DNA of 64,000 nt, taken from positions 18,280 to 82,279 of the forward strand of contig CAZAMP010000007.1 in assembly GCA_964486455.1 (NCBI GenBank). The letters are read 5' to 3'. Position 1 is the first letter of the stretch. Each line of letters begins with the position of its first letter. The translations under genes were made by a program, and so were the position numbers. The notes beneath the pieces were generated by a model. That model saw only the letters and a program-made list of their open reading frames with translations. It was not told where the DNA came from and did no database searches. Shown here piece after piece: positions 5,342-56,800 of the stretch. This DNA is from an uncultured bacterium (GTDB lineage: Bacteria; Eisenbacteria; RBG-16-71-46; CAZAMP01).

Positions 5342-5416
5342 TTCACGGCTGCGCCGTCTGCAGAACGTGGGCGGCGCGGCGTAGATCCCACGGTTATCCA
5401 CACAGGAATGCGTCGC

Positions 5417-5445
5417 AGGCGGCGAGAATCGAACCCGCCGCCCAA
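5417..5445. terminator. GC-rich hairpin (GGCGGCG..CGCCGCC, 7-bp stem) between convergent gene ends; T-arm-like (GGGTTCGATTCTC on minus strand)
   Basis: Perfect 7-bp inverted repeat with 11-nt loop, 14 nt after the stomatin stop and 76 nt after the + strand gene stop. No U-tract, as expected at high GC. Confidence 0.4.
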
Positions 5446-5458
5446 ACTCGTCACGAAG

Positions 5459-6217
5459 CTAGCTCTCGCCGCCCTTCTTCTCCATGAACGGTCGGAACAG
5501 ATCGACCGGCACCGGCATGAGGATCGTCGAGTTGTTCTCGCTCGCGACCTCCGTCACCGTCTGGAGAAACCGAAGCTGAACGCCTACCGGGTTCTGGCCG
5601 ATGACTTCCGCTGCTTGGGCCAGCTTCGCGGACGCTTGGAATTCACCCTCGGCATGGATGATCTTCGCCCGCCGCTCGCGCTCGGCCTCCGCCTGACGCG
5701 CCATCGCCCGCTGCATTTCCTGCGGAAGGTCGACGTGCTTCACCTCGACGGTGCTCACCTTGATCCCCCACGGATCGGTCTGCCGGTCGAGGATCCCCTG
5801 CAGCCGTTCGTTGATCTGCTCCCGCTGAGAGAGTAGATCGTCCAGCTCGATCTCGCCGAGGACGCTCCGGAGCGTCGTCTGCGCAAGCTGCGACGTGGCG
5901 AAGAGATAGTCCTCCACCTCGACGACCGCCTTGTTCGGGTCCATGACACGGAAGTAGATGACCGCGTTGACCTTCACCGACACGTTGTCGCGCGTGATGA
6001 CGTCCTGGGGCGGCACGTCCATGGCGATCGTTCGAAGGCTGATCTTCACCATTCGATCCACGATCGGGATCAGGATGATGAGCCCCGGCCCCTTGCTGCC
6101 GATGATGCGCCCGAGCCTGAAGATCACGCCCCGTTCGTATTCCCGCAGGACCTTGATCATCGCGGAGAGCAGACTGATCCCAAGAAAGATCAGAACACCT
6201 ATCACGACCACAGGCAT
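5459..6217 (-). CDS. SPFH/band-7 family stomatin-like protein (slipin)
   Basis: N-terminal TM helix followed by an SPFH core ([62 protein letters not shown]). Coiled-coil C-terminus. Strong RBS agaggagg. Lies 12 nt downstream of nfeD. Confidence 0.85.
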
Positions 6218-13399: not shown

Positions 13400-15718
13400 A
13401 TGAAAACCACGCCCTATATAGGGATCGCGTCTTCAGCCCTCGTCGTCGCCCTTGCGGCCCTTTGCTGCGCCGGCGTCGTAATGGCATCACCCGACGTGAC
13501 CGGGTCTCGGGTCGAGGAGAATCGGGTCATCGTCACATTGGAATCGGGTGAGTTCGAGTTCGTTCCGGCAAGCGATCCGACGGGCGACACGGAGCGGATC
13601 GAGATGAAGTCGTTTGGTCGGATTCAAGTCCCCGGCCAACCGGCACTGCCGATGCAGCGTTTCCTCGTGGCACTGCCGCCCGGCGCCCGGGCCACGTCGA
13701 TCGAGATCCTCGGCTTGACGAGCCGCGACATCGGCGACCATCACCGGATCGCCCCCGCCCCGCCAATCGCATTCCTGGGAGACATGCCGGGCTGGGATGA
13801 CGCCACGCAACGCGTGAGGGATGAATGGCAGGCCGAATACGATGCGGTGTATCTCAACGGCGCCACGTTTCCCGCCGAGGCGGCATGGCTCGCCGCGAAG
13901 GGTAGCTACCGGCAGGTCGCGTACGCGTCGGTCGCGTTCTGCCCGTTCACATACCACCCACTTTCGGGGCGGATCGAGCACCACGCGGGGATCGAGATCG
14001 CGATTCACTTCGAGACGTCATCCGCCGATGCGCCACGCATCGCCCCTGACGCCATAACCGAAGCCCGCGCGGCAGACCTCTTCTCCAACTACGCGACGGT
14101 GGCCGACCTCTATCGGACGGGCGGAGATGGGCCACCATCCCCGGACGACACATACGACTTCGTCATCATCACGACGGACGCCTGCTTGGGCGCGCTCAAC
14201 GCATCCGACTTCCCGGCGTGGAAGGCCGACCGCGGCTACTCCCTTCGCACGCTGCTCACGACCGATCCGGAGATCGCGAGTCAACCCGGCGTCGATCTAG
14301 CCGAGAAGATTCGAAACTGCCTTCGGAGCAACTACCTCCAGTGGGGCACGCGCTACGTCCTCATGGTCGGCGACTACGCCGAGGTGCCGATGCGGATCTG
14401 CTACCCGGACCCCGACTTCCACGTCTACGACCCCTGGGATCCCGGCCTCATCGCGCCCGGAACGCCCACGGACTACTACTTCGCCGACCTCTCGTACGAC
14501 GACGATGTTTCCTGGGATTCGGACGGGGACGGCTACCACGGCGAGTACGGTCACGACGATCCGGATTTCCTGGCGGAAGTGTCGGTCGGCCGCATCCCGG
14601 TGAACTCGGGGTCTCGCATCGTCTATTCCCTCAACAAGCTCGTCGCGTTCGAGCAGGATACCGGCGCGTGGAAGCGAAACGTCCTTCACGGCGGTAGTAT
14701 TCTCTTTTTCGAGAACCAGAACGGCAGCGGCTATCCGTTCATCGACGGGGCGTCGTGCCTCGACTCGATCGAGGTCGGGCTGATGGACGGTTTCTCAATC
14801 ACCCACTTCACCGAGCGCGCGGGGATCGTGCAGTCGCTCTACGACTGGCCGGCGATCACGGAATACAGTTTCACGAACGCCTGGGGAACCGGCCAGCACG
14901 CGGTCGTGAACTGGTCCGGCCACGGATGGCCCGACGGCGCCTACCGAACGATCTGGGCCTGGGACGACGGCGATGGGATTCCAGAGCACGGAAACGGCGA
15001 GCTGCAGAGTCACCGCTTCATCGGCCTCGGCTCGGGCAACATCGATGACGACCATCCGTCGATCGTCTTCGCGATCTCGTGCAACGTCGGCTATCCGGAT
15101 CCCAATCCATACGGAAACCTCGGCATCGACCTTCTGACCCTGCCCGGCTGGGGCGCGTCGGCGGGCATCGTCAGCTCCGCGCGGCCCGCGGCCATCTCCG
15201 GCGACTGGCGTAACGACCCGGGCGGAACGGAGCAGATTTGCTACGACTTCAACCGATACCTGCTCGTGGAAGCGGAAAGGGTCGGCGACGCGCTCTATGA
15301 CGGCAAGTTCAGCGCAACGAGCGAGTACGGATGGGACCGCGTTTACGAGTACATGAACCTCTACAACTTCAATCTGTTCGGGGACCCGTCGATGGATATG
15401 GGCGCGGCAACCGTGGGCGTGTCGGCGGACACGGAAGCCGACGTCGCGATCCTCGGGCACGGCATGCCGAACCCGTTCGCGGCGGTCACATCGGTGCGGT
15501 TCACGCTGCCCGCGGCCGGGACGCTTCGCGTGAGCGTTCTTGACGTCGCGGGGCGCCATGTCGCCACTTTGGCCGACGGTCGGTTCGACGCGGGATCGCA
15601 TGCCGTGATGTGGGACGGAACGAACGATCGTGGTGAGCGGATCGCCGCCGGCACATATTTCGTGGTCGGTGACGCCGCAGGACGGCGGATCGCCCGGAAG
15701 CTGGTGCTGCTCCCGTAG
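13400..15718 (+). CDS. Secreted peptidase C25 (gingipain-like) family protein with C-terminal T9SS-type sorting domain
   Basis: Signal peptide. C25-like segments YVLMVGDYAEVPM, His in NWSGHGWPDG, Cys in VFAISCNVGYPD. C-terminus LRVSVLDVAGRHVATL...VMWDGTNDRGERIAAGTYFVV. Confidence 0.55.
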   Translation: MKTTPYIGIASSALVVALAALCCAGVVMASPDVTGSRVEENRVIVTLESGEFEFVPASDPTGDTERIEMKSFGRIQVPGQPALPMQRFLVALPPGARATSIEILGLTSRDIGDHHRIAPAPPIAFLGDMPGWDDATQRVRDEWQAEYDAVYLNGATFPAEAAWLAAKGSYRQVAYASVAFCPFTYHPLSGRIEHHAGIEIAIHFETSSADAPRIAPDAITEARAADLFSNYATVADLYRTGGDGPPSPDDTYDFVIITTDACLGALNASDFPAWKADRGYSLRTLLTTDPEIASQPGVDLAEKIRNCLRSNYLQWGTRYVLMVGDYAEVPMRICYPDPDFHVYDPWDPGLIAPGTPTDYYFADLSYDDDVSWDSDGDGYHGEYGHDDPDFLAEVSVGRIPVNSGSRIVYSLNKLVAFEQDTGAWKRNVLHGGSILFFENQNGSGYPFIDGASCLDSIEVGLMDGFSITHFTERAGIVQSLYDWPAITEYSFTNAWGTGQHAVVNWSGHGWPDGAYRTIWAWDDGDGIPEHGNGELQSHRFIGLGSGNIDDDHPSIVFAISCNVGYPDPNPYGNLGIDLLTLPGWGASAGIVSSARPAAISGDWRNDPGGTEQICYDFNRYLLVEAERVGDALYDGKFSATSEYGWDRVYEYMNLYNFNLFGDPSMDMGAATVGVSADTEADVAILGHGMPNPFAAVTSVRFTLPAAGTLRVSVLDVAGRHVATLADGRFDAGSHAVMWDGTNDRGERIAAGTYFVVGDAAGRRIARKLVLLP

Positions 15719-23469: not shown

Positions 23470-25266
23470 ATGCTGCCCTGCCCCCCTCGGCGTCAAACGA
23501 TGAAGCTCCTGTGCTGGCTAATGCTACTGACCGTCATCCCCGTGTCCCAAGTGCTCGGAACATCCCCCGCACCCGATCCCGAACCGATGAATCCGACCGA
23601 GTGGGAGGACTGGCTGAGTGGTGGTCCCGAGGACCGGCTCCCGATGCCACCATCGCTCGGGCCATGGAATTACGTCCGCGAGTTCAATCAGATGGTGGAT
23701 TTCTTCGCGTTCTGGCAGCTCTTCGATCCGGACTCCTCCAACCACGGGGGAATGATCGAGGCCGAGGCCGGTCCGCTGGGTAACGTCATCCAGACGGACA
23801 ACACGCTCGAGGCGATCTGGTGTTGGTCACGCTTTCGGGAGTTCACGGGTCGCGACACCTACGACGTCAATACCGAGGCGGCCTGGATCTACTGCCGGAA
23901 CTTCCCGGCGTGGATGGAGGAGGGCGGTGGCCAGGACTACTACCGCGTTCACAACTGCGCCTGGGGACTCACGGCGGTGCTCATGTACGAGGCGGCGACC
24001 GGCGACATGTCCTATTCCGGCTACGCCGACACGTGCGCCCAGTACATCGTCGATCATCCGCTCAACATCTATGACGGAACCGTCTGGCAGCAGCGGCTGG
24101 ACAGCTTCGTCAAAGGGTGGGCCGCAGGGAATCTCTATCTGTTCGGTGAGGCGCGGGGCAACGCCACTCTCATGGCCGAGGCCGTCACCCAGGGAACGGA
24201 CGTCTTCAACTGGCTCAATTCCAACCCGCAGGTGAATCTCACGCTCGAGTACTGGGCGATGAGCAGCGGCACCTCGATGTGGGGGGTCTGTAACTCCGTG
24301 TTTCGTGACGACCCGGTCCTCGGCCAGACCTGGTGCGCGGCCAATGCCGGCTACATGGATGTCTGGCAGGAGTGGTACAGCGTGCCCGGCTACGACTGGG
24401 ACTCATCGTGGAACGTGGCCTACTGCAACGCGCATTTCGCCGTCTGGGACGTGACCGGGGACGATACCTACTGGAACAACGGCGCGCTGATCGCCGACCT
24501 GCTCCTCTCTCTGGACACCGACGATGACGGCGGGATCGTCGCCAACACGCACGATCCCGTCACCGAGGACATGACCTGGGTGTCGTGCTACCTGGTCAAG
24601 ATGGGCGTGGATCGATTGATGGGAAGCGTTTCCGATCACGACACGGGCACACTCCGCTTCGTGGGGATCAACGACGGCGAGACCTTCGAGGTGGATACGC
24701 CGATCCCGGTTCGCGTGATAGCAACGAACTACGGGCTGAACGATGAGTCCGGCGTGGAGCTGCATCTCGCCGGCGATGCCGGGAGCGACATGGCCATCGT
24801 GGATCTCGACTTCGCCGAGCTGGATTCCACCACATTCGTCGAGGATTGGCTCCCCGGCACGGTCGGCTCCTATACGCTCACGGCGTGGACCGAGATGGCC
24901 GGCGACGCGGACGCGACGAACGATACGATCTCGGTAACCTTCGATGTGACACCGGTCGTCGGGGTCCCGAATGCCGGCGACCCCGCTGGCCCGATCAGCC
25001 TGGTGAGGGCAACTCCGAACCCATTCCAGGCGTCGGTCGTGATCCACTTCAATCTCGAAACCGACAGTGGTGTCATGCTCGAGCTGTTCGACCTGAACGG
25101 GCGGCTCGTGCGACGAATAGATGCCGGGCGACCAGCCGCGGGCAACGGGACGATCGCATGGGACGGTCGGGACACTGACGGCCGAACCGTCGCGCCGGGT
25201 CTCTATCCGTATCGGTTGAGCGCCGGGAACCAGGCGAGTAGCGGGAAGATCGTCAAGGTGAGGTAA
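23470..25266 (+). CDS. Secreted Trp-rich (possible six-hairpin/alpha-alpha-barrel) protein with C-terminal T9SS-type sorting domain
   Basis: RBS ggaggt. Signal peptide. C-terminus VMLELFDLNGRLVRRI...IAWDGRDTDGRTVAPGLYPYRL. The N-terminal family was not identified. Confidence 0.5.
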   Translation: MLPCPPRRQTMKLLCWLMLLTVIPVSQVLGTSPAPDPEPMNPTEWEDWLSGGPEDRLPMPPSLGPWNYVREFNQMVDFFAFWQLFDPDSSNHGGMIEAEAGPLGNVIQTDNTLEAIWCWSRFREFTGRDTYDVNTEAAWIYCRNFPAWMEEGGGQDYYRVHNCAWGLTAVLMYEAATGDMSYSGYADTCAQYIVDHPLNIYDGTVWQQRLDSFVKGWAAGNLYLFGEARGNATLMAEAVTQGTDVFNWLNSNPQVNLTLEYWAMSSGTSMWGVCNSVFRDDPVLGQTWCAANAGYMDVWQEWYSVPGYDWDSSWNVAYCNAHFAVWDVTGDDTYWNNGALIADLLLSLDTDDDGGIVANTHDPVTEDMTWVSCYLVKMGVDRLMGSVSDHDTGTLRFVGINDGETFEVDTPIPVRVIATNYGLNDESGVELHLAGDAGSDMAIVDLDFAELDSTTFVEDWLPGTVGSYTLTAWTEMAGDADATNDTISVTFDVTPVVGVPNAGDPAGPISLVRATPNPFQASVVIHFNLETDSGVMLELFDLNGRLVRRIDAGRPAAGNGTIAWDGRDTDGRTVAPGLYPYRLSAGNQASSGKIVKVR

Positions 25267-25301: not shown

Positions 25302-26105
25302 ATGAAACGGATCATCGGCCTCGCGGTTTTGTGCTTCATCTGTGTTTCCGGCGTGGCCGGCGGCCAAACTCAACTCCGGCACGCCTGGGCGGCCGCCGAA
25401 GCCGGCGACGGATATGACAAGCTCGTCGAGCTTGACAGCCTGGAGGTCTACACGGGAGGAATCTTCGTCTCTGTGGAGGGTGGCATAAACGCCTGCATTC
25501 AAGGCCACGGGGCCATCCTCGATCTCATGGCATCGAACATCTACGTGTCGGGAATCGGCAATCACCTGGACATCAACGGCTGCGTGATCATGAATGGGGG
25601 AAATCTATCCACTGGCGCTGGGCTCTACTACGACGACTATGGCAGCGGTCACGTCAGCAACTGTGTGTTCTACGGAAACCGCACCGGACTTCAGATGGAG
25701 GGCGTCGTCGTGGCCGACAGCAGCAGCATCTGCAACTGCATTTTCATGGAAAACTCGGAGTGGGGTGCCATTCTCGATGACGAGGACACGCCACCCCTAT
25801 TCAACTGTGCGGCCTGGATCAACGCCGCCGGAGATTACGCACTCTGGTGCGGCTGCGATACCACCGACCCGTTTGACTACTACCCCAACCCCGCGGACAA
25901 CTGCCTGGTGGATGATCCGGATTTCGTGAACCCGTCGACCGATCCGAGTACGTGCGACTTCCATCTGAATGAGGAGAGCCCCTGCATCGGCGCCGGCGAC
26001 CCGCTGGGCACCGACATCGGGGCCTATCAGGAGTGGGCGGTGCCGACGCGCCCGAGCAGCTGGGGACGCATCAAAGGGATGTACCGAGGCAACGGGAGCC
26101 GCTAA
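25302..26105 (+). CDS. Secreted protein with parallel beta-helix (PbH1-like) repeats
   Basis: RBS gggaggag. Signal peptide. Repeated N-C-[VI]-F/I-.-.-N motifs (NCVFYGNRTGL, CNCIFMENSEWG). Confidence 0.5.
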   Translation: MKRIIGLAVLCFICVSGVAGGQTQLRHAWAAAEAGDGYDKLVELDSLEVYTGGIFVSVEGGINACIQGHGAILDLMASNIYVSGIGNHLDINGCVIMNGGNLSTGAGLYYDDYGSGHVSNCVFYGNRTGLQMEGVVVADSSSICNCIFMENSEWGAILDDEDTPPLFNCAAWINAAGDYALWCGCDTTDPFDYYPNPADNCLVDDPDFVNPSTDPSTCDFHLNEESPCIGAGDPLGTDIGAYQEWAVPTRPSSWGRIKGMYRGNGSR

Positions 26106-27596
26106 TCAAAAGCGTGCGCGGGCGGAGACCGACGTGATCGTCGCGTCACTCTCGTCCAGATCGATCTGATCCTCGCGGATCACCTGGTGGAGTATCGATA
26201 ACCGAAGCTCGTCCAGCGTGAACGAAAGCTCCCCGAGCCCGATCCAGCGCTCTCCCGACCGGTAGTCGCAATCGCATCCCGATTCCCGCACGATATCCGT
26301 GCGCTCGAACTGCGCTCCCGCGAGGATCTGCCATCCCTTGCCCATCTCCGCCGACACCTGGAAGCTCGCCGTGAGCTCGCTGTCGAGGAGCGTGAGATCT
26401 TGGGGATCGGCTGACTCCGGCTCGATAGGCTCGAGCCGCCGGACGAACGTGTCAACGGTTAGCGGGCCGCGCTCGGCGGTCACGCGCGCACGTAAGCCGG
26501 AGCGGTTGCCCAGGTAGGTGAGCGCGCTGTACGGCGCCGAGAAATGCTCCTCGAATCGAAGATAGGCAAGCCGTACACCGATCGTGCGCGCCGCGAGCAC
26601 CGCGTGCGCGGTGGCGCGGAAGCCGTTCGACCATCGCGTGCGTGAGGCGTCCCCACGGTGATCGTCGCGCTGCGCGGTCCGCAGCCACTCACCCTCGAGC
26701 GTTGCGAACCGGGCGATCGGAACACGGGCGTCCAGTCCGAACGCCGTGTTCATCATCGCGAAGCAGAGCGGATCTGTTTCGACGGTCGGGCAACCCGGGT
26801 TGCGGGGATCGTCGCGGACGTGCATGACCGTGGCGCCGACACGACGAAACGTCAAGCTCGCGTCGTGGAGCTGAGAGTAGACGGCGCGACCGGCGTAGAG
26901 GTCTTGGTGGTGCTGAAAGGTGTCCTCGTCGAAGATCGGAAGCCCGGGAACCCTATCGAGCGTCGCTTCCTTGGGCCGCGCGTAGAGAACGGTCCAATCG
27001 AGACCCTCCCCTACGGTGCCGCCGGCTCGCGCGCCTTCAAAGGTGAGATCGGGCCCGGGCTCCTCGAGGCTTTCGATCAGGACCGCGGCCGTGGTTCCCC
27101 CGCAGACGCCGCACGCCCGTTGCGTCCCGCCGAGCGCGATATCGGCCATGTCCCAGCGCATGAGCGTGAGCGGCGTGAAGTGAACGTCGTAGTAGCCGAT
27201 GCGGCCGTGAACGTTGCCGTATCGCATCGCGACGAACGCGCTACCCTCCGGGCGAGAGAAATAGTGCGGGCCCAGGAGCAGTACGTTATCCGGTTCGTTG
27301 CTGACGCGAAGAAGACCGCCCGCGGTGACGTGCCGATTGACCTGTCCCTCGACCGTGAGGAAGAACCGGTGGAAGAACGAGGTCTGGGGTTTGAGCGCTT
27401 CCCCGTAGATCCCGGTGAGAGAGGGCCCGTCAACATCGACCTGGAGCCAGCGCGCGCGGACGTCGCCAGTAACCGTGATCCGGTCGTCGATCCCCGCGGC
27501 CGCATCGTTCGGGATCACGTTGCCGGCGACCACGAGGAACGTGAACGCGAGGATCGCCATGAGGACAGCATGCGTGCTGGGCGACCGCCTACTCAT
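26106..27596 (-). CDS. Putative outer-membrane beta-barrel protein (signal peptide, C-terminal Phe)
   Basis: Start chosen at MSRRSPSTHAVLMAILAFTFLVVAG, overlapping the upstream stop by 8 nt. Alternating amphipathic strands. Terminal ...ARARF. Confidence 0.45.
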   Translation of the reverse strand: MSRRSPSTHAVLMAILAFTFLVVAGNVIPNDAAAGIDDRITVTGDVRARWLQVDVDGPSLTGIYGEALKPQTSFFHRFFLTVEGQVNRHVTAGGLLRVSNEPDNVLLLGPHYFSRPEGSAFVAMRYGNVHGRIGYYDVHFTPLTLMRWDMADIALGGTQRACGVCGGTTAAVLIESLEEPGPDLTFEGARAGGTVGEGLDWTVLYARPKEATLDRVPGLPIFDEDTFQHHQDLYAGRAVYSQLHDASLTFRRVGATVMHVRDDPRNPGCPTVETDPLCFAMMNTAFGLDARVPIARFATLEGEWLRTAQRDDHRGDASRTRWSNGFRATAHAVLAARTIGVRLAYLRFEEHFSAPYSALTYLGNRSGLRARVTAERGPLTVDTFVRRLEPIEPESADPQDLTLLDSELTASFQVSAEMGKGWQILAGAQFERTDIVRESGCDCDYRSGERWIGLGELSFTLDELRLSILHQVIREDQIDLDESDATITSVSARARF

Positions 27597-28146
27597 CGTC
27601 CGTCTCCGCGGCCTCACGAGCGTCGGCGATCTCGAGCGCGCTCGTCCAGATCGAGTCGATCGACTCGGGATGATCATAGTGGACGAGATGGACGACACCT
27701 TTGCCGTCGATCAGAAAGCAACTGAAGCTCAGGTTCCCCGCCGACATCGCCTTCGCGACTGAGCCGGACGCATCCCAGAGATTCAGGAAGGTGAGCTTCG
27801 TGCCTTTCACGAGCCGCCGGGCGTCCCCGATCTTCTCGTCGTCATTCACAATTCCGACGACGTGAAACGGAAGGGAGTCGGCCCGCGACGCGTGCCGCCC
27901 CATCTTCACCACATCCGCCATGCAATCCGGGCAGTTCGTGTTCCAGAGGATGAGAAGCGACCAGCCGTTGGCGGCGAAGAGCGAGTCGGAGGCGAACGAG
28001 CCGTTCCCGTGGAGATCGGGCAAACGGAACGAGGGTGCGGTGTCCCCCTCGTTCAATGCCCAGGCGACGGTCCCAGACAGCATCGTCAGCGAGACGAGTG
28101 CCGCGAAGACCCCGACCAAGAGGGTGATGCGATATCCCGACTTCAT
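27589..28146 (-). CDS. TlpA-like thiol-disulfide oxidoreductase (thioredoxin/redoxin family)
   Basis: RBS aggag. N-terminal membrane anchor. WNTNCPDC active site. Redoxin-fold context. Confidence 0.75.
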   Translation of the reverse strand: MKSGYRITLLVGVFAALVSLTMLSGTVAWALNEGDTAPSFRLPDLHGNGSFASDSLFAANGWSLLILWNTNCPDCMADVVKMGRHASRADSLPFHVVGIVNDDEKIGDARRLVKGTKLTFLNLWDASGSVAKAMSAGNLSFSCFLIDGKGVVHLVHYDHPESIDSIWTSALEIADAREAAETDDE

Positions 28147-28184: not shown

Positions 28185-28802
28185 ATGTCAATGGATCTGC
28201 TAGCATGCCGCATCATTGATCCATCACCGGGCCTGAACATGAAGTTACTCATCGTCACAGCATCGAGCACCGGCGCACGCGCCGACAGTCGAACGGACGC
28301 GCTCATCGAGTCGTATCGATCGCGCGGCCATGACGTCGCGCGCGAGAATTCGGGTCGAGCGGCGGGCGCGATCATCAAGGACAACTGGTTTGATCTCGTC
28401 GTCGAGGATCTCACCGACGATCCGCTCCATGTGGCGAAGTGGGTGAAGCGGCGCCCGGTCCTCGTGCTTCCTCCAGATCTCTTCCCGGGTTCGTCTGCCG
28501 GGCACGCCGCACCGGACTACCTCGGCTCGGGGTTCGTGGCGAAGCGGCGCGCCCGCTGTTACCGGAACTGCTTCTTCGTCGTCCCGGATGAGCCGGGCGC
28601 CGGGGCGCTCGTGTCGTTCGGCGTTGAGTCCGAACGGATCCAGGCCATCGAACCGATGCTCGGCCGCCTCACGGGCCCCTCCACCGACGCACTCCCGGCG
28701 CCGGCGCTCGATGAGACCAACGCCGCGCGCTGGCGCCAGGTGATGGAAGGCGTTTACGAGTTCAGCCTCGAGATCATCGAGAATCACCGCGCGTGGTACT
28801 AG
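28185..28802 (+). CDS. Hypothetical protein (weak receiver-like N-terminal segment)
   Basis: No RBS and no clear motif. MKLLIVTAS...FDLVVEDL loosely resembles a CheY-like fold. Start ambiguous between 28185 and 28239. Confidence 0.35.
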   Translation: MSMDLLACRIIDPSPGLNMKLLIVTASSTGARADSRTDALIESYRSRGHDVARENSGRAAGAIIKDNWFDLVVEDLTDDPLHVAKWVKRRPVLVLPPDLFPGSSAGHAAPDYLGSGFVAKRRARCYRNCFFVVPDEPGAGALVSFGVESERIQAIEPMLGRLTGPSTDALPAPALDETNAARWRQVMEGVYEFSLEIIENHRAWY

Positions 28803-28920: not shown

Positions 28921-30990
28921 CTAGTTCACGCGAACGATCTTGCCCGACTCCTCATACCCGGGACCGCTGAGACGGAATACGTACACACCCGCCGGCATCG
29001 CGATGCCGCGATCGTCGGTCCCGTCCCAGCTGACACTTCCAGCCCCGGCGTCGAGCTTCCCGCTGAACAGAGTGCGCACCAGTGCGCCGTTCGGCGAGAA
29101 GACACGGATGGTCGCCTCACCCGCGGACGGCACTGAATAGCCCACGACCGACGACGATCGGAACGGATTCGGAGTGGCCACCAGGAACAGCGTTGCAGGC
29201 GCGATGCTCGGGCCCTCGACGCTCACGACACCTGTCGGATCGGTCGTCGTGAACCTGATGGCTCGGCCATCGACGAGGCCGTGCGCGCCGCCGTTCAACA
29301 CGCCGTTGTAGACGTACTCGAGCCCGATCGTCCCCGTGTTGTTCTCCATTCCCACGCTGCATTGATCCGGGAGACTCACGGTTTTGTATTGAACGATGAT
29401 CTCTCCGTCACCCGTGGGCGTGGGATAGTGGGCAGGGTCAAAGAAAATGAACTGGAACGTCTCGGGAAGTCCCTCGTCGTTGGGATCGGCATGCTCCACG
29501 CCGCTGAACTCGATGACGAACCGGTCGTTCGCTTCGTCGAAGTACGTGTAGACCTGGCCACTTCCCTCGGCGGTTGGGTTCAGGTCGGCCCAGAACCCGG
29601 CAACGATTCGATTCGGGCCCTCCGAATTGGGGAACCCCGTGTTGGGAATGCCCAAGCCGCCTACGATTCCCATGCCGACGAAGCCGTTCGAGTGGAGCGT
29701 GATCCGATTGAAGGAGTCCCCGTAGTAGCTGAAGTCGAAGGGGAGAAATGGCGCGGCTCCTTGATTGTCGCCCAGCGTGACCAAGTCGCCGGATCCGCCC
29801 AGGTTCGGATCGATCTCGATCCAGTCGTACACAGGTGCGGTCGGATAGTCGTCCACATCTTCATAGGCGTAGTAGCCGTAGGCATCGTGACCGATCGGGT
29901 GTCCGGGCGATCCGGAGCGTACGAAGATGTGAAAGTCGTCCTGATATGCGCGGCCGTTTGCGTTCACGGTCAGCGTGATCTCGGCCTTGTATCCCCACGG
30001 CGCCGACTCGACAAATGAAACGGTGAACGGGTCGGCACTGTTCTCCCCGCTACCGCCTGACGGAATGTCGGGCCAGCTTCCGGACGCATCCTCAATGGTC
30101 AGGTACTCGTCATCGGTCGTGAGCGTGCCGGTGATGTCCGTTCCGGGTCCGATGTTGAGATTGGAGAGCAGCAGTGTGATCTCGGCGGATTCCCCGGGGT
30201 CGAAATAGCCGTTGCCGTCTCCTCCGGCGGAGTCGTCCACCGATTGGCCATCCACGACAAACTGCGGATCGTCCAACCTGAAGTAGACGCGACCCGCTTG
30301 GTACACCTCTTTGGTGTTGTCGTTTTGGATGAACACAACGCACTGCAGCTCATCCTCGACCCACTCCGGATGATAGGTGAATGTCTCCGTCCGTATCTCC
30401 GGCACACCCGGCGCGAAGGTGGTCTCTTCGCCATACACATCGGGGAAGAAGTCACGCATCGTGTGGTTTTGTGGGTTGTCGTTGTATACGAGCCCGTCCT
30501 CCAGGATCACGAAGTGCAGCGTTCCGGTTACCGGCGTGCCTGTGTCGTTCGTGATCTCGGCGGTGATCGTGCCCGTCGTGTCGGTCAACATCTCACCTGT
30601 GACGATCAGCTCGAGCGGGCTCTCGACTTCATAGCGACTGAGCATCATCGATTCCCAGGGGAGACTGTGCTCGCCGTCGATGATGCCGTCGATGTAGACG
30701 TGCGGGGTGTAGTCCGCGCCGTAGTACTCAACTCGGTGAGTGTTCTCGTCGACGTTGTGCAGATAGTAGGGGTCTGAGCTACTCGGCCACCACGCGTGGT
30801 AGCTCAGGACGATCGTTTCGCGCGGATAGGCTTCTGCGATTCCGTCCAGCACACGGCTGGATGCGACGCAGCCGCCTCACGCCACGTTGGTCATGTACTC
30901 GATGAGAACCATGCGCTGCGCGGCCCCGGCCGACATGGCTGTCGCGGCAAGGAGCGCGAGGGAGAGCCCGATGACGATGTGGCGATTCAT
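28921..30990 (-). CDS. T9SS-type cargo protein with N-terminal thioredoxin-fold U/CxxC module; reading frame interrupted by an in-frame TGA at 30877-30879 (candidate selenocysteine, or pseudogene)
   Basis: Strong RBS GGAGGAGG and ATG at 30990. Signal peptide MNRHIVIGLSLALLAATAMSAGA, then beta-strand MVLIEY, then TGA-GGC-GGC-TGC (U-G-G-C). The next 643 aa stay in frame and end in the shared sorting domain IRVFSPNGALVRTLF...VSWDGTDDRGIAMPAGVYVFRL. Confidence 0.5.
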
Positions 30991-31150
30991 TGGTGGACCT
31001 CCTCCAGGTAGCTACCCTAAGGGGAATACTCCGATCCGGATGTCATATTATCTCACGCCCGCCAATCGTGGACAACTCCGCCCCAGTGACCCGTGCAGAC
31101 CGTGTGGGCGACTCTTAACAGAAAATGCCGAGCCCAAGCGTTGTCGCTTA

Positions 31151-31450
31151 CGTCCGCCGAGGGCTGGAGACCGAAGGCTCGACACCGAAGGACGAAAGCG
31201 CAGGGCGGACGGTTGAATGCAGGTGGCTGAGTCGGCTCAAGCAAGCAAGTGCGCCTCCGAGCCCTACGTCAACGAGCGAAGCACCGGGCGACATGCCTCG
31301 CCCCGACCACACCCTCCTGCCGCGCGAGGGTGGCCGGTTTTCCGAAAGGCGACTTCGCAGGAGCGAGGCGAAGATCACCCGCCGAGGGCTTGCGGCCGGA
31401 GGCTCTGCGCCGAAGGCGCAAGGGCGACGGTGGAAAGCCCTCGGTGGGAA
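31151..31450 (+). other. Candidate structured RNA / repeat-containing intergenic element
   Basis: Part of a 560-bp intergenic region between co-directional genes. Purine-rich top strand. CCGCCGAGGGCU occurs twice (31154, 31378). A 13-bp helix CCCGCCGAGGGCU/AGCCCUCGGUGGG encloses GCGCC-GAA-GGCGC. Several GNRA/GAA-capped hairpins. No plausible ORF. Confidence 0.25.
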
Positions 31451-31552
31451 GCTGAGCCGAGCGGGCGAGGAGCCGACGGAAGGTCGGCCATCCTCGCGCG
31501 GCACACGGACGCGTGGACCGGCTAGAAGCAAGACGTCCGGGGAAGAGCGAGG

Positions 31553-33343
31553 CTAGTTGAGATAGAGCGTTAAGCGATCCCCGGGATGGATCAGCGACGA
31601 ACGACTCCCCATCCCGTTCCACTGGCGGATGTTTCGCACCGTGGTCCCGTAACGCGACGCGATGTCCCACAACGTCTCGCCATGCGCGACGCGATGCACG
31701 ACCGCCTCGCCCACCGAGAGCGTACGAACGGTGAGCTTCTGCCCGGGCCGAAGCAGGTTCTTCCCGCCGAGCTGCCCGTTGAGGGAGCGAAGCGTGGTGA
31801 CCGTGAGGCCGTACTGCCGCGCAATCGACCACAAGCTCTCGCCGCGGCGGACCGTGTGAGACAGGAGACCACCCGGCTCAGGAGAGGAGCTTCGGGTCGG
31901 CTTGGCCTTCGCCGGCGCCGGCGCCGGGCCGCCCGCGAAGAGCGTGAGCGTCTGGCCGGCACGCACACGATGCGCGTTCGGGATGTCATTCCACTGCTGG
32001 ATGGCACGAACCGACGTTCCGTAGCGCCGTGCGATCGAACTCAACGATTCACCCCGACGGATGCGATGAGTAACCCGTTCCCCTGGCGCGAGAAGCGATG
32101 CGAGCGCATCGCTCGGGTCCCATCGCCCACTCGGAATGAGAACCGTCTTCCCTTGGCGGATCATCGTCCGCCGACCCATGCCGTTCGCCTGCTGAATCGC
32201 GGAGACCGTGGTCCCGTAGCGCATGGCGAGATGCGAGAGCGTCTCCCCGCGCCCAACGACGTGACGCTGGTAAAGCATGCGATCCTCAGGCGGGATCGCC
32301 GCCAACGCCGTGGCGAACTGCTCCTTCGAGCCGGTTGGGATTCGAATCTCATACGGATGATGCCCGGGGGGCGTCTGAGACGCGAGGAGCGCCGGATTGA
32401 GCGCGCGAATGACGCTGGACGGCACGCTTGCGCACTCGGCGATCACGTCGACGTGCGTCACGCTTTCGACCTCGATCGTATCGTACTCGATTGGATCGTC
32501 CGGATGGAACTCGAGCCCAAAGTCATCAGGCTGCTTCGAGAGGATGATCGCGGCCAGGATGGCCGGAACGTAGTTGCGGGTCTCGCGCCGGAGCATCCGC
32601 GTGCGCGCGAGTTTCCAGAAGTCGTCCGTGCCGGCGCGACGCAAGCCGCGCTTCACTTTGCCCTCACCGGCGTTGTATGCCGCCATGGCGAGGTGCCAGT
32701 CGTCGAACAGCTCGTAGAGGTCCTTCAGGTAGTGCGCAGCAGCCCGCGTTGAGCGCTCCGGATCGAGCCGTTCATCCACGTAGGAGTTGCAGAGAAGTCC
32801 GTATCGTTTCGCCGTGCTGCGAATGAACTGCCACATCCCGATCGCGCCCGCGCGCGATCGGGCGTTGTAGCGATAGGCGCTCTCGACGTGCGCCATGTAC
32901 GCGAGGTCGAGAGGCACGCCCTCCTCGATGAATACTCGCCTAATCATCGGCATCACGAGGCCCGAACGCCGAACGGCGCGCTCGAACCAGCTCGCCTGCT
33001 TGCCGGAGTACCTGTCGATGAAAGTGAGAACGCGATCGTTCATGTCGATCGGGACGTCGAACGTCACGACCTCTTCTTGCGCCTCGAGACGCTCACGCCC
33101 CTTGGCGAGCGAGCTGTCTGGGAGCGTCGGGATGTCTTCCAGCAATGTGTCGAGCGGAGATGCGACCGTGATGAATTCGAAGAGGCTGTCCGGGTGTGTC
33201 GCGAGCGTATCGATCTTACCGACCGGTCCGCCGGCCGACGGCTCGGAACCATCCAAGACATCGGTCGAATGTTGCACGTGCGGTGCACAACCAATCGTAA
33301 GGATGATCGCGGTGAGAGCGCAGAGGCGCCAGCCATTGATCAT
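31553..33343 (-). CDS. mltD: Membrane-bound lytic murein transglycosylase D-like (SLT domain + 4 LysM repeats), lipoprotein
   Basis: Lipobox LTIGC. SLT motif ESAYRYNARSRAGAIGMWQFI. Four LysM repeats (GETLSHLAMRYGTTVSAIQQANG, GESLSSIARRYGTSVRAIQQWN, GESLWSIARQYGLTVTTLRSLN, GETLWDIASRYGTTVRNIRQWN). Confidence 0.8.
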   Translation of the reverse strand: MINGWRLCALTAIILTIGCAPHVQHSTDVLDGSEPSAGGPVGKIDTLATHPDSLFEFITVASPLDTLLEDIPTLPDSSLAKGRERLEAQEEVVTFDVPIDMNDRVLTFIDRYSGKQASWFERAVRRSGLVMPMIRRVFIEEGVPLDLAYMAHVESAYRYNARSRAGAIGMWQFIRSTAKRYGLLCNSYVDERLDPERSTRAAAHYLKDLYELFDDWHLAMAAYNAGEGKVKRGLRRAGTDDFWKLARTRMLRRETRNYVPAILAAIILSKQPDDFGLEFHPDDPIEYDTIEVESVTHVDVIAECASVPSSVIRALNPALLASQTPPGHHPYEIRIPTGSKEQFATALAAIPPEDRMLYQRHVVGRGETLSHLAMRYGTTVSAIQQANGMGRRTMIRQGKTVLIPSGRWDPSDALASLLAPGERVTHRIRRGESLSSIARRYGTSVRAIQQWNDIPNAHRVRAGQTLTLFAGGPAPAPAKAKPTRSSSPEPGGLLSHTVRRGESLWSIARQYGLTVTTLRSLNGQLGGKNLLRPGQKLTVRTLSVGEAVVHRVAHGETLWDIASRYGTTVRNIRQWNGMGSRSSLIHPGDRLTLYLN

Positions 33344-51420: not shown

Positions 51421-51661
51421 CTGGTCGTCCGGAACCTCTCACGGTAGGGTGGGTACCCCGTAGGTGCCCAATGCGGATCTTCCGATCCGGCCTCACAGGT
51501 AAATAATCGGACGAAGACGTCGAGCCTTGAGGTTATTGGGACCTTTCGGTCGGAGTCTCCGAGCGTGGTGGACGGATCGCCCCCGCCCGCCTAAAATAGA
51601 CGGCCGTCTATCAACTAGAACGATTTGCCGACGCCTGTCTGGACAGAGGAGGCTGGATTTC

Positions 51662-53662
51662 ATGACGCGAGAGATGCTCCGCCGGCTGGCTCGCGGGTTC
51701 TTCATCAGCACAATCGCCGGGGCGGCATTCTTGGCCGCCGGTTTGCCCGGCGGTCCCGTGCCGGCCCTCGCATCCGGCGACGACGCCGCAGGTTGGCCCG
51801 ATGCCGGCGGGCAGGCGCTCGATCCGGTCAGCATATCCGCAACGGTCGACCGCAGTGACGTACCGAGCGGTGGGTCTCTCGAGCTGACGATCACGATCGA
51901 GATGGAGCACGGGTGGCACATCAATTCGAACGCGCCACTCGAAGACTGGCTCATCCCGACGGAGTTGGTGGTCGACGCGCCCGATTCGTTCTCGCTGACC
52001 GCAGTCACGTATCCGGACCCGGAGATGATGCGCTTCGAATTCTCAGACCAGGACGTCGCCGTCTACGAGGGACGAGCGGTCGTCTCGGCCGAGGTTCGAC
52101 TCGGCGCGGGGTTGGCGGAAGGTCCCGTGGCGCTCTCCGGCGCCCTGCTCTATCAAGCGTGCAACGATCAGACATGCCTTCCCCCCAACGAGAAGACGTT
52201 CAACTTCGCGCTGACGGCGTTGGCGGCGTCCGGCGCGCTACAGGCGACGGGCACCCCGATGGCGGCGACTGACGCGGAGGACAAGAGCGTCACCGCCAGG
52301 CTCTCGTCATCACTCGCCGACAACTTCGGCAACCCGTTCATCGCCATCATCCTCACGCTTCTAGCGGGTCTGCTTTCGGCCGCCACGCCGTGTGTCTACC
52401 CGATGATCCCCATCACGGCCCGGATTCTGATGGGACGCGGGGGCGATAGTCCGGCGCTCGGCCGGGCTCACGCCTTCATGTATTTCCTGGGCATCATTCT
52501 CGTGTACATGATCCTCGGCACGATCGCCTCGATCACAGGCGGTGGGTTCAACGAGGTGATGCGCATCCCGGTCGTGATTCTCGCGATCGCGATCATCTTC
52601 GCGCTTCTCGGCCTCAGCATGCTGGGTCTCTTCGAGATTCAGATTCCCGAATCCATCGCGTCGCGTGTAGACAGCGGTACGTCGAAACGTTCCGGCCTCT
52701 TCGGCACGGTGCTAATGGGGGCGGGCGCGGGACTTATCGTGTCGCCATGCGTCGGACCGGTCGTGATCTTCATCCTGACACAGATCGCAGCATCCATGGC
52801 GGCGGCGGAAGCGGCGGGCGGCGGGCTCTCATCGTCGGCAAAGGTCGTCTACGGTTCGTTCCTGATGGCCGGCTTCGGCGCCGGGCTCGGCGTGCCGTTT
52901 CTCATCGTCGGCCTCTTCTCGACGAAGCTTGCCAAACCGGGACCGTGGATGACGGCCGTGCGCGTCGCGCTGGGGCTCGTGATCCTCTACTTCTCGTACG
53001 ACTACTTCCACAAGTCGCTCGCGACAGCCGGTGTAGAGCGCGCGTTCGCGAACGCGATCGTGATCGGCGCGGTGCTCGTCTTCCTCTCGGTGCTCTGGGG
53101 AGTCTTTCGGACGAAGATCGAGCCGGGGCCCCACGCGGGATGGCACAAGGTCAAACACGCCTGCACGATCATCATGTTGGTCACCGGGATTTTCTTTCTC
53201 TGGACGGGTCTCAGCCGATCCGGTGTCATCCCCGGCGGGACGTCCGGTGTAACGTTGACGGCCGCGCCGGCCGGAGTAGCGGAGGACGTGGAGGATTCGC
53301 ACGGGCTTCTCTGGCAACGCGACTTCGCCAAGGCGCAGGAGATGGCCCGAGGCCGCTCGCTTCCGATCTTCGTCGACTTCTACGCGCACTGGTGCGCGAA
53401 CTGCAAAGTTTTCTCGCACCAGGCGGCCGAGGAAGGCCCCCTTCGGGACGCACTGGAGAGCGTGGTGCGGGCGAAGATCTATGACACGGATGACGTCTTC
53501 AAGACGTTTCAGAACGATCCGCGCTACCCGGAGCTCAAGCGGGGTCTGCCGTTCTTTCTGATCCTCTCGTCAGATGGAGAGCCGCTCTGGAAGGGCACCG
53601 ACTACAAAACCCACGACGTGATGATCAGCCAGATTTCGCGCGCAATCGAGGCCGAGACGTAG
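51662..53662 (+). CDS. dsbD: Thiol:disulfide interchange protein DsbD (DsbD-alpha + CcdA-like TM core + thioredoxin-like domain)
   Basis: RBS gaggagg. Signal peptide. N-domain with LYQACNDQTC. TM core with AATPCVYPMIPI. C-terminal thioredoxin fold FYAHWCANCKVF. Confidence 0.8.
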   Translation: MTREMLRRLARGFFISTIAGAAFLAAGLPGGPVPALASGDDAAGWPDAGGQALDPVSISATVDRSDVPSGGSLELTITIEMEHGWHINSNAPLEDWLIPTELVVDAPDSFSLTAVTYPDPEMMRFEFSDQDVAVYEGRAVVSAEVRLGAGLAEGPVALSGALLYQACNDQTCLPPNEKTFNFALTALAASGALQATGTPMAATDAEDKSVTARLSSSLADNFGNPFIAIILTLLAGLLSAATPCVYPMIPITARILMGRGGDSPALGRAHAFMYFLGIILVYMILGTIASITGGGFNEVMRIPVVILAIAIIFALLGLSMLGLFEIQIPESIASRVDSGTSKRSGLFGTVLMGAGAGLIVSPCVGPVVIFILTQIAASMAAAEAAGGGLSSSAKVVYGSFLMAGFGAGLGVPFLIVGLFSTKLAKPGPWMTAVRVALGLVILYFSYDYFHKSLATAGVERAFANAIVIGAVLVFLSVLWGVFRTKIEPGPHAGWHKVKHACTIIMLVTGIFFLWTGLSRSGVIPGGTSGVTLTAAPAGVAEDVEDSHGLLWQRDFAKAQEMARGRSLPIFVDFYAHWCANCKVFSHQAAEEGPLRDALESVVRAKIYDTDDVFKTFQNDPRYPELKRGLPFFLILSSDGEPLWKGTDYKTHDVMISQISRAIEAET

Positions 53663-53825: not shown

Positions 53826-56800
53826 ATGAGAACTCCGTCATCGTCTGCTTCCTATCGCGTCCTGCTACCGCTCTTTTCGTGTCTCCTGATCGTCCTGGCG
53901 ACTCCGACCGCGGGCTACGAGCTGCGACTCAACTGCGGAGGCGGCGCGTATACGACGGTTGGCGGTAAGCACTACCAAGCCGATCAGGCCTACGTACCGG
54001 GCTCAGGCGGCTACACGACATTCGGCTTCGCGGACGACACCTGGCAAACGGTCGGCGGCACGCCGGACGTCCCCCTCATCGAAACGCTCCGCGGAAACTG
54101 TGCCTACCGCTTCGATGTACCGGACGGTCCGTATCTCGTCACGCTTCACATCTGTGACTTCTGGAGTCACGGCCCCCGTCAGAACCAGTATGACGTTCTC
54201 TTCGACGGCGTCGAGGTCATCAGCGATCTGGACTGCTTCGAACGGGCGGGAAAGAACTTCGCGCAGATCTTTCGCTTCAACGTCGACGTGACCGACGGTG
54301 ACATCGACATCACGTTCCACATCGACCAGCGCCATACCTACATCGGTGCCATCTCCGTCGAGTCGCGCACACCCGACGGCGACGCGCCCGCCCCGCCGAC
54401 GGGGGCGGTCGCGTACGGCAGCTATGAAAAGAACTCCGTGAGCTGGGACGACCACGACGAAGACGACGTCGCCGGATACAACATCTATCGCAAGGTTGAG
54501 CCGAGCGGACCGTGGATAACCATGACAGACGAACCCGTTCAGGTTTCCTTCTACCACGACCCCTGGGGCATCCCGGGCTTCGAGTACCGCTACGGCATTC
54601 GCGCCGTCGACGCGTACGGCAACGAAGGAGACATGACCGAGACGAACTCGGTGATCACGCTGGCTATCACCGAGTCGACGCTCCCGCTGTACGAAATCTT
54701 CATGAACCTCAACGACTTCGACGAGCTGAATTCCGACCAGGGCGTCACCGGCGACGACTACTTCCCGGCCACGTTCGTTCACGACACGCAGGTGTTTCAG
54801 AACATCGGCGTGCGCTATCGCGGCAACGTGATCCGCAAGCTGCCAAAGAAGTCGTGGAAGGTCCGCTTCAACGAGAATGAGCTGTTCGACGGCGCAGAGC
54901 GAATCAACCTGAACAGCGAGTGGCCCGATCCGACGCTCCTGCGCGAGATGCTCGCGTACAACGTCTACGACGCCACGCGCGTTCCGTACTCCTGGAACCG
55001 ATACATCAACCTGATGGTGAACGGTGACTACTTCGGCCTTCACAACAACATCCAGCAGGTCGACCAGGTGTTCCTCATCGATAATGACCTCGATCCGGAC
55101 GGAAACCTCTACAAGTGCTTCTCGAATCTGAGCGTGCTGCCGAATCCCGAAGACTACATAGAAGCGTACGAGAAGAAGACGAACGAGGGAGAGGGCCACG
55201 ACGACATCATCGCGTTCATCGAGCTGCTGAATTCCGTAAACGCCGCTACGTTCTACTCGACATTCGCTCCCATCCTGGACATCGAGGAGGCGATCGAGTG
55301 GTATAGCGTGAACGTCTTGCTCAGCAACTGGGACTTCACCATGAAGAACTACTACATGTACCACGATCTCGCCGATGACTACTGGACGATACTCCCGTGG
55401 GATATGGACTTCAGCTTCGGAAAGCATAACATCCTCGACAATCAATTCGATCCCGACGGATCGTTGATAATCGGATCGGGGCACAGGCTCGCGTTTCGCA
55501 TCATCTCGACGCCGGCGCTCCGGAGAAAGCACGCCGAGAACCTCATCCGCTTCGCGCGCGGGCGTTTCTCTTCCGAAACCATGGATCCCAAGATCGATGA
55601 AGGTCACGCGGCCCTCTACGGCGACGCGTTGATGGACATGATCAAGAACGGTTGGGACGACAACAGTATGTTCCTCGACGGTCCGGACGGACTGAAGGGT
55701 TACGTGACCGGCCGATGCGCGTACATCGAGGCGATCGCGCCGTCGCTCATCAACGACGACGGGCTCGTGATCAACGAGTTCATGGCGCGAAACGCTTCGA
55801 CCATCATGGACGAATCATCCGAGTACGAAGATTGGATCGAGATCTACAACGGATCCCCCGACACCCTCGATTTGACAGGGATGTTCCTGACCGACGATCC
55901 GCTCGATTCGATGAAGTGGGAGATCCCGGCGCTGGAGCTTCTACCGGCGGGCTACGCGCTCTTCTGGGCGGACACCGACACGCTTCAGGGTCCGCATCAC
56001 ACGAACTTCAAGCTGGCCGGCGGCGGCGAATGGGTGGGTTTGTTTGCGTCGGTCGCTGACGGAAACGTGCCGATAGACTTCACGCGCTTTGGAGCACAGC
56101 AGTACGACGTCTCCATCGGTCGTACTCCCGACGGCGACCTCTACTGGACCGCGTACGGAAACCCCTCCCCCGGAGGGCCGGCGGGCGGCGGGCCGAATCT
56201 TCCTCCGGCGATCACGGGCACGACGCACGTGCCGACCTGGCCCGGAGAAGAGGACTCCGTACTCGTGACGGCCACGATCAACGATGATGATGGACTGGTC
56301 GAAACGCTTCTCTTCTACGACGCGGGCGCCGGCGCCGACAGCCTGATCATGTTCGATGACGGACTACACGGTGACGGCGGGGCCGACGACGATGTCTATG
56401 GCGCCACGATCGAGCCGCTCCCGGATGGAACCAGCGTGGACTACTGGATCCGGGCGACCGACGGATTGTCCGTTACCGCGACCGATCCACCGGGGGCGCC
56501 GGATTCCACACACTTCTACCAGGTCGCGTACGTATTGCCGCAATTGTCCATCAACGAGTTTCTCGCCGACAACGAAACCGTTAACCAGGACGAAGCGGGC
56601 GAGTACGACGACTGGGTCGAGATCTACAACGGCGGCGCGGGCACGGTGAACCTGGGCGGAATGTATCTGACGGACGACCTGGCCGATTCCACGCAATGGA
56701 CTTTCCCCGACACCACGCTGGGGCCGGGCGGTTTCTTGCTGGTCTGGTGCGACAACGACCTGGGACAGGGACCACTACACGCCAACTTCAAGCTCGGCGC

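Follow-up and report, generated by a model that had tools for sequence, protein, structure and literature searches.

The gene and its in-frame TGA

The 64,000-nucleotide stretch analysed here (hereafter the window; contig CAZAMP010000007.1 of GenBank assembly GCA_964486455.1, positions 18,280 to 82,279) comes from an uncultured bacterium of the Eisenbacteria. A gene located on its minus strand, at 28921-30990, contains a single in-frame TGA and very probably encodes an exported selenoprotein, with selenocysteine (Sec, U) in the UxxC motif of a thioredoxin-like domain. Translation from the ATG at 30990-30988 to the TAG at 28923-28921 gives a complete frame of 689 codons and a stop, in which the TGA (30877-30879) is codon 38 and the first position of U-G-G-C. 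A Shine-Dalgarno (SD) sequence, GGAGGAGG, was read directly 7 nt 5' of the ATG (31005-30998), and about the first 24 codons (30919-30990) encode a hydrophobic leader, MNRHIVIGLSLALLAATAMSAGAA, predicted by eye to be a signal peptide of the Sec translocon type with an approximate cleavage site. The sequence running up to the TGA is QRMVLIEYMTNVA, and the codon stands in the context MVLIEYMTNVA-[TGA]-GGC-VASSRVLDGIAEAYPRE, where the cysteine is Cys41 (TGC, 30868-30870), the resolving cysteine of UxxC. The sequence-only reading, an earlier note made from the letters of the window and their translations, had claimed a strong ribosome-binding site, a signal peptide and a lone TGA in this local context, and the translation bears it out. 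Its count of 643 codons after the TGA was wrong: the frame stays unbroken over 651 sense codons 3' of the TGA, and 643 is the length of the open reading frame (ORF) that begins at an internal GTG at 30852.

This GTG is the start chosen by the gene callers. The NCBI, JGI, ENA and Logan records hold only a nameless 643-aa product (28921-30852, minus strand), and the public gene calls keep a 37-aa N-terminal ORF apart from the 643-aa ORF. Taken at face value, these calls mean that UGA terminates a 37-aa leader peptide and that a 643-aa protein is made from GTG 30852, possibly a relic from an ancestor that used Sec and whose machinery has since been lost. The public gene callers all interpret the gene in this way, and the Sec trait of the organism is argued from comparative evidence, with no sel genes within the window or its flanks. 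However, no SD-like sequence is present 5' of the GTG, and the 643-aa product would retain a secretion-type C-terminal domain but lack its signal peptide as well as strand beta1 and the catalytic residue of the thioredoxin fold. An intact hairpin agreeing with all four published criteria for a bacterial selenocysteine insertion sequence (bSECIS) also follows the UGA, and we regard termination as improbable.

We investigated whether the TGA is genuine. The locus is present in at least 10 contigs of independent assembly (JGI, Logan and ENA). Around the TGA, 231 nt are 100% identical across all the assemblies compared, which come from different samples, and in a further JGI sample (3300007510) the entire gene is identical. 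Because the TGA is base-identical in at least five independent assemblies, an error of sequencing or assembly at 30877-30879, for which only the a priori possibility in any metagenome assembly speaks, is excluded for practical purposes; the same codon is moreover found in 36 other genes. UGA is otherwise an ordinary stop in this DNA: 9 of the 27 confident window genes terminate in TGA and none has an internal one, so that the earlier statement that TGA is not generally recoded here stands. The composition is of coding type on both sides of the TGA, with a GC content at third codon positions of 0.89 upstream and 0.78 downstream. When every TGA-interrupted frame of the window and its flanks was scanned systematically, this two-sided coding composition was found in this gene only, and no other TGA-interrupted gene was credible.

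The UGA codon and the downstream hairpin among homologues

A word-index protein search gave only two relatives, both called as N-terminally truncated genes with a tiny ORF in front; reading through the junction with the tiny ORF gave U-P-Y-C and U-G-S-C in the same column as the window motif. The wider set came from profile-based and DNA-pattern scans, the pattern scans yielding 61 loci in GTDB species genomes and another 63 in metagenome contigs (numbered below with the prefix L), and the codon aligned to window codon 38 was read in each gene by a tblastn script. In 141 distinct homologous genes this codon is TGA in 37 and TGT or TGC in 104, and never any other, which answers favourably the proposal of the sequence-only reading that relatives be aligned for Cys or Sec at this position. 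The cysteine three residues further on does not vary in any homologue examined. Every Sec-type gene has an SD sequence and encodes a signal peptide or hydrophobic leader, with the U about 12 residues past it; the 36 Sec-type genes other than that of the window, from several phyla, share the motif R.V..E..TN..U..C.

The Sec-type genes are carried by genomes labelled Zixibacteria, Gemmatimonadota, Ignavibacteria and "uncultured bacterium", and Cys-type genes are found additionally in WOR-3, Calditrichia, Kapabacteria and Bacteroidota. In a rough neighbour-joining tree the Sec-type genes fall into a single large clade, inside which a few Cys forms are nested, as is usual for Sec/Cys interchange.

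We then turned to the RNA 3' of the UGA. The window hairpin (30845-30861, minus strand) lies 19-35 nt 3' of the U of UGA and has a 6 bp stem, UCCAGC (30861-30856) with GCUGGA (30850-30845), closed by the 5-nt loop CGUGU (30855-30851) with G-U at loop positions 2-3. Published criteria for bSECIS elements comprise a stem of 4-16 bp with a loop of 3-9 nt, a G within the first two loop positions, a UGA-to-loop distance of 16-37 nt and a minimum free energy of -7.5 kcal/mol or lower (PMC13188914); the window hairpin, with a spacing of 21 nt and -8.5 kcal/mol, agrees with all four. A strict script built on these criteria passed 25 of the 37 Sec-type genes, compared to 2 of the 104 Cys-type genes, and folding of the 63 nt from the UGA or Cys codon gave stronger structure in the Sec-type than in the Cys-type genes.

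Alignment of the Sec-type sequences separated two hairpin classes. In group A (24 genes) the consensus is CUGAUCU-GGUCUU-AGAUCAG at +20 to +39, with 97.6% of cells paired, whereas sliding of the 3' arm leaves 14-31%, and two pairs are compensated, U-A to C-G and C-G to U-A. Group B (11 aligned genes, including that of the window) reads C-C-(A/G)-(G/A)-C, N-G-U-G-N, G-(C/U)-U-G-G at +20 to +34, with 86.4% of cells paired against 6-41% in the slid controls; pair 23-31 is G-C in 7 genes and A-U in 4, the 3' change being a synonymous CUG to UUG leucine replacement. Third-codon-position identity in codons +6 to +12 is 0.92 in group A and 0.82 in group B, compared with 0.39 and 0.43, respectively, in the rest of these genes, and third positions of group B are invariant (1.00) over codons +6 to +10. 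The Cys-type genes have 0.37 in codons +6 to +12 and 0.37 elsewhere. These identities show selection on the RNA.

In comparison with the SECIS of E. coli fdhF, both elements are hairpins that closely follow the UGA and expose G-U in a small apical loop, and the group A loop GGUCUU resembles the fdhF GGUC loop. The window hairpin differs in its loop, CGUGU, which lies a few nt farther from the UGA, and in having no evident bulged U. No Rfam family was matched at gathering thresholds in the window, nor at E up to 10 for 30780-30920.

The conserved hairpin is not the one first put forward. The sequence-only reading had proposed a 7-bp bSECIS-like hairpin, GCGGCUG-cgucgcauc-CAGCCGU (positions 5-11 and 21-27), beginning 4 nt past the UGA. 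This hairpin is present in the sequence, but it is unconserved and too near the UGA: 62% of its cells are paired in relatives, no better than in controls, 155 of 500 shuffles equal it, and its loop starts 8 nt past the UGA. Because its 3' arm overlaps the 5' arm of the conserved hairpin, the two are mutually exclusive. What holds of the proposal is that a bSECIS-like element exists, at 30861-30845, and the expectation of conserved structure 3' of the UGA was confirmed by pairing above slid controls and by a synonymous-site constraint specific to the Sec-type genes.

These data bear on two further explanations. A gene decaying after a former Cys codon mutated to TGA would need only one base change from TGC or TGT, and it would suit both the Sec machinery not being found on the contig and a public annotation in which the N-terminal part is a separate 37-aa ORF. 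Yet 37 distinct genes of several phyla have TGA in this column, the hairpin specific to the TGA type is conserved with frozen synonymous sites, coding composition is kept on both flanks with the frame open for 651 more codons, and all the assemblies examined agree on the gene, which bears no other lesion; a nonsense pseudogene is thus very unlikely. Recoding of the UGA as something other than Sec, by near-cognate Trp or Cys read-through or by lineage-specific reassignment, is a second possibility, and insertion of Cys would also be compatible with a homologous column that otherwise holds only Cys. It is hard to reconcile with the use of UGA as a stop in the window genes and the lack of any other internal UGA, with a hairpin that fits a SelB-type bSECIS in position, loop composition and energy, and with the curation of the homologous GOS_C family as selenoprotein, and we consider it quite unlikely. 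Reading of the UGA as Sec remains the explanation that we prefer.

Several observations made in the relatives are recorded here. A Sec-type and a Cys-type paralogue occur together in one metagenome-assembled genome (MAG) in three cases, L021 with L024 (CAZHVC01), L022 with L026 (JBBIRK01) and L015 with L018 (CAZNLH01). The motif of L083 (Cys, TGC) is almost identical to that of L021 (Sec), so that a Sec/Cys switch must have taken place recently. Tandem arrays of two to three Sec-type paralogues, in which every copy has a UGA and a SECIS hairpin of its own, are present in a Zixibacteria MAG (L020, 4719-8266) and in two metagenome contigs (L093, around 2900-6000, and L071, 216-2019). The Cys-type gene of L108 (around 308-997) has an in-frame stop about 14 codons past the CxxC (…SNPVLNAYL*), in a column that differs from the Sec site, which may reflect a pseudogene or a sequencing error. 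In the group A gene of L095 (2615-2668) a change of U36 to C disrupts the consensus stem and permits an alternative hairpin, CUGGUC-UUA-GACCAG, in which the GGU of the loop is buried; it may be a variant or weakened SECIS. The RNA of the Sec-type gene of L045 (6055-6110) fits neither class well, its best simple hairpin having 4 bp, a GUU loop and -3.2 kcal/mol; the MAG is labelled Puniceispirillum and the contig may be mis-binned.

Architecture of the protein and relation to known families

The predicted protein comprises four parts after the leader: a thioredoxin-fold domain (about residues 26-125; 30616-30915), an Omp28-type beta-sandwich (about residues 126-236; 30283-30615), a middle region of about 370 residues (237-605; 29176-30282) and a C-terminal beta-sandwich of sorting type, FlgD_ig or type IX secretion system (T9SS) type A-like (residues 606-689; 28924-29175), all on the minus strand. 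In the first domain we recognise beta1, U38xxC41 opening alpha1, beta2, inserted helices, the TP96H cis-Pro loop, beta3-beta4 and alpha3. The family profile aligned with the M. jannaschii thioredoxin 1fo5 places CPHC on the U/CxxC column and the cis-Pro on the TPH of YYGADYTPH, and it further matches Atu2684 (2axo). The second half of the profile (positions 93-224) matches P. gingivalis Omp28 (2r2c) with E 9.7e-6, and Pfam PF11551 Omp28 scores 48.4 bits over residues 88-234, above its gathering threshold of 34.9. The middle region has no Pfam match at E up to 0.01 and is missing from most relatives, which are mostly 350-460 aa long. In the C-terminal domain FlgD_ig reaches 43.6 bits over residues 622-675 (cutoff 27).

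An AlphaFold2 (AF2) model was made of P0009, a Zixibacteria Cys-type homologue 38% identical to the window protein, from a 65-sequence alignment (mean predicted local distance difference test score, pLDDT, 90.8). It shows, in order, a classical thioredoxin fold with the CxxC opening alpha1, a beta-sandwich, a linker and a C-terminal beta-sandwich. An N-terminal helix (8-19) precedes the domain, whose elements are E31-37, C41xxC44 with H42-57, E62-68, H77-93, P99, E100-103, E107-110 and H113-124, and the sandwich strands span 130-246. The order of elements in the model is thus beta-alpha-beta-alpha-beta-beta-alpha, alpha1 carrying the CxxC at its N-terminus and a cis-Pro loop standing ahead of beta3. 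The thioredoxin fold with UxxC and cis-Pro loop, which the earlier note had read from the primary sequence, accordingly appears in the 1fo5 alignment, in the P0009 model and in the match to HBP35.

Searched against the PDB, the P0009 model gave as its top match HBP35 of P. gingivalis (5y1a; E 1.3e-15, 348 of 350 columns). The thioredoxin activity of HBP35 requires C48 and C51 (PMC2907840), which an ungapped coordinate offset in the profile match puts on the U/CxxC column, and a second report describes the protein as secreted and glycosylated via Por/T9SS and surface-anchored (PMC3120885). HBP35 follows the core plan that is predicted for the window protein, with a signal peptide, a thioredoxin-like CxxC domain, an Ig-like beta-sandwich and a T9SS C-terminal domain. 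It differs in having Cys instead of Sec, in lacking the extra 370-aa region and in a sequence similarity that is marginal (E 0.041), and its hemin binding is not implied for the window protein. Judged from the model, HBP35 is the closest characterised analogue of the window protein.

The kind of protein is already known. The GOS_C family was described in 2008 by Zhang and Gladyshev from marine surface-water reads as of unknown function, with 74 Sec and 312 Cys sequences, a thioredoxin-like fold, a conserved UxxC and SECIS-like elements (PMC2398784). We found that this "hypothetical protein" of 2008 corresponds to what is now NCBIfam NF045500, "Omp28-related selenoprotein", on which reads from the GOS_C supplement reach 337 and 434 bits. 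Secreted UxxC selenoproteins related to Omp28 have therefore been known since GOS_C. Like GOS_C, the window protein has a thioredoxin-like fold followed by an Omp28-type domain, one Sec in UxxC and many Cys homologues. The UxxC follows the same beta-strand in both (...VEDFTGLN-U-PYC-PAAS... in GOS_C, ...IEYMTNVA-U-GGC-VASS... in the window), and GOS_C likewise has a predicted SECIS directly 3' of its UGA. BLASTP aligned the two at 22% identity with residue 38 on the U and C41 on the C. They differ in that GOS_C branches far from the window clade in the neighbour-joining tree, lacks the extra region of about 370 aa of the 689-aa window protein, and comes from marine surface water, whereas the window clade is found in Zixibacteria, Gemmatimonadota and Ignavibacteria MAGs and the window organism belongs to Eisenbacteria.

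The best NCBIfam matches of the window protein were NF045500 and the Omp28 lipoprotein family NF033782, each well under its cutoff. Membership in NF045500 was rejected on score, 44.9 bits against 200, a cutoff that the Sec-type relatives (26-70 bits) do not reach either; the score for NF033782 is 39.6 bits against 150, and because the leader is without a lipobox Cys the window protein is not a lipoprotein. Likeness to the Omp28 family (PF11551, 2r2c) is confined to the beta-sandwich half, and NCBI names the Cys-type relatives "Omp28-related outer membrane protein". Going by these sequence scores, the window gene belongs to a separate clade that is beyond the reach of the curated NF045500 model and truncated in the public records checked.

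Other exported thioredoxin-fold UxxC or CxxU selenoproteins include DsbA-like, TlpA-like UGC, redoxin-family and SaoT proteins and others (PMC13188914). They too have Sec for the catalytic Cys, abundant Cys homologues and a bSECIS in the coding sequence just past the UGA; they differ in a domain context other than an Omp28 sandwich with a T9SS-type tail, and show no detectable close sequence relationship. Our literature search found no work joining Omp28 with a selenoprotein and none usefully joining T9SS with one, and a 2026 review, in which the motif of the GOS_C family is given as UxxC, leaves Zixibacteria, Gemmatimonadota, Eisenbacteria and Ignavibacteria unmentioned.

The C-termini of the Sec-type relatives vary. 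Most end in a T9SS type A tail, L033 carries an IPTL-CTERM sorting signal (27.2 bits, above cutoff), and several (L021, L022, L031 and L037) end in what resemble, by eye, dockerin-type repeats of the form GDxNGDG. Thioredoxin and Omp28 domains thus seem to form a modular unit that is joined to anchoring devices of different kinds.

Considering all of these data, it is highly likely that the product of the minus-strand gene at 30990-28921 is an exported selenoprotein of 689 residues in which UGA codon 38 is read as Sec, and comparative evidence indicates that Sec is very probably inserted in this organism. The Sec/Cys pairing, the Sec-specific hairpin and the fold match agree with the earlier placement of Sec at the nucleophilic UxxC position of a thioredoxin fold. 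T9SS sorting, also claimed in that note, is plausible rather than proven: FlgD_ig passes and other window proteins exceed the TIGR04183 (Por_Secre_tail) cutoff, and export through the Sec translocon and then T9SS is, from sequence features, plausible.

A number of observations weigh against this interpretation as a whole or in its parts. No selA, selB, selD or tRNA-Sec was found in the 64-kb window, in the 10-kb flanks or in any fetched locus; ARAGORN detected neither a tRNA nor a tRNA-Sec when run on the window and on 19 loci, and four exact-protein look-ups along the contig returned none of selA, selB and selD and no member of a known selenoprotein family. The contig shows no sign of a second selenoprotein gene. 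The covariation in group B amounts to essentially one compensated pair, from maybe one or two evolutionary events, and several hairpins of this group, taken as simple stems, are weak (-4.2 to -4.8 kcal/mol). The window protein is a long branch, far under the NF045500 cutoff, and its fold was modelled on the 38%-identical Cys-type P0009 and not on the protein itself. Its tail scores 21.7 bits on TIGR04183, narrowly under the cutoff of 23, where relatives score 35-44 bits and three other window proteins 27.5-34.7 bits. No core T9SS machinery (PorK/L/M/N, Sov, PorU/V) was identified on the contig, the C25 peptidase at 13400-15718 matching PorU by its tail only (34 bits against a cutoff of 420).

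Gene neighbourhood and proposed mechanism

Downstream of the selenoprotein gene, on the same strand (27589-28146), lies a gene for an exported TlpA/ResA/DsbE-like redoxin of 185 aa with a CPDC motif (Pfam AhpC-TSA and Redoxin; NCBIfam DsbE/ResA-like). A redoxin of TlpA-like type adjoins the Omp28-related gene in 42 fetched loci, both Sec- and Cys-type, and in 31 it is adjoined by a DUF6029 protein about 490 aa long (for example in the neighbourhood of L001 1015-3045). The downstream TlpA-like redoxin is likely to be a functional partner of the selenoprotein. The 484-aa neighbour in the window (26106-27560) was considered as a DUF6029 homologue and rejected, showing no BLAST similarity, and the neighbours at 26106-27560, 28191-28802 and 25302-26105 are without Pfam match. 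On the other side, a gap of about 560 nt (30991-31552), containing spurious high-GC ORFs only, separates the start of the selenoprotein gene from an upstream SLT/LysM gene (31553-33343). The HflX protein encoded in the window has its best named relatives in "Candidatus Eisenbacteria" (about 60% identity), a placement that is tentative, being based on one marker.

Farther away, a DsbD-type membrane disulfide reductase is encoded on the plus strand at 51527-53662 (Pfam DsbD_N, DsbD_TM and Thioredoxin_7; NCBIfam DsbD 195 bits, cutoff 330). It is possibly the electron source for periplasmic redoxins, and any link to the selenoprotein would be conjectural. Its resemblance reflects the shared DsbD core and is not evidence for a second selenoprotein.

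The protein is most likely a thiol-disulfide (selenol-thiol) oxidoreductase of the cell envelope or surface. In bacterial Sec decoding, SelB with GTP and Sec-tRNA(Sec) acts from the loop of the hairpin. We propose that SelB would bind in this way to the hairpin loop, with the ribosome positioned on the UGA, so that Sec is inserted; that the product would pass the Sec translocon by means of its signal peptide; and that the domain at its C-terminus would direct T9SS export and surface attachment. Sec38 would attack substrate disulfides to form a selenenylsulfide with Cys41, and re-reduction, if any, could come from the neighbouring redoxin and DsbD while the protein is periplasmic.

It is conceivable, although we hold it doubtful, that groups A and B, with the 37 Sec-type genes, make up a large un-annotated clade of cell-surface selenoenzymes, which C-terminal sorting signals, of T9SS type or other, would carry beyond the outer membrane, with TlpA-like redoxin and DUF6029 partners and two lineage-specific SECIS classes. 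If true, selenium-based redox chemistry would take place on the bacterial cell surface, where no obvious reductant is present.

Knowledge of Sec decoding itself is unchanged by these findings. Their interest lies first in the annotation, as truncation in the databases strips the protein of its signal peptide and its catalytic residue, and the Sec-type relatives are affected alike; with a profile of the clade and the two SECIS consensus hairpins, pipelines could recover dozens of selenoproteins in poorly studied candidate phyla of the Fibrobacterota-Chlorobiota-Bacteroidota (FCB) group. The long-orphan GOS_C family is in addition tied to the characterised HBP35, a T9SS-anchored surface thioredoxin, and a conserved partnership with a TlpA-like redoxin and DUF6029 is revealed. 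The HBP35 link and the partnership together provide a testable functional hypothesis for a family of unknown function since 2008.

The window is also unusually rich in genes for large exported proteins with FlgD_ig/T9SS type A tails (2636-5341, 13400-15718, 23470-25266, 53826-58064 and 58869-61811). Among these proteins are a peptidase of the C25 (gingipain) family that has a propeptide, an S8 peptidase bearing a choice-of-anchor J domain and a 1412-aa Malectin/CotH/LTD protein.

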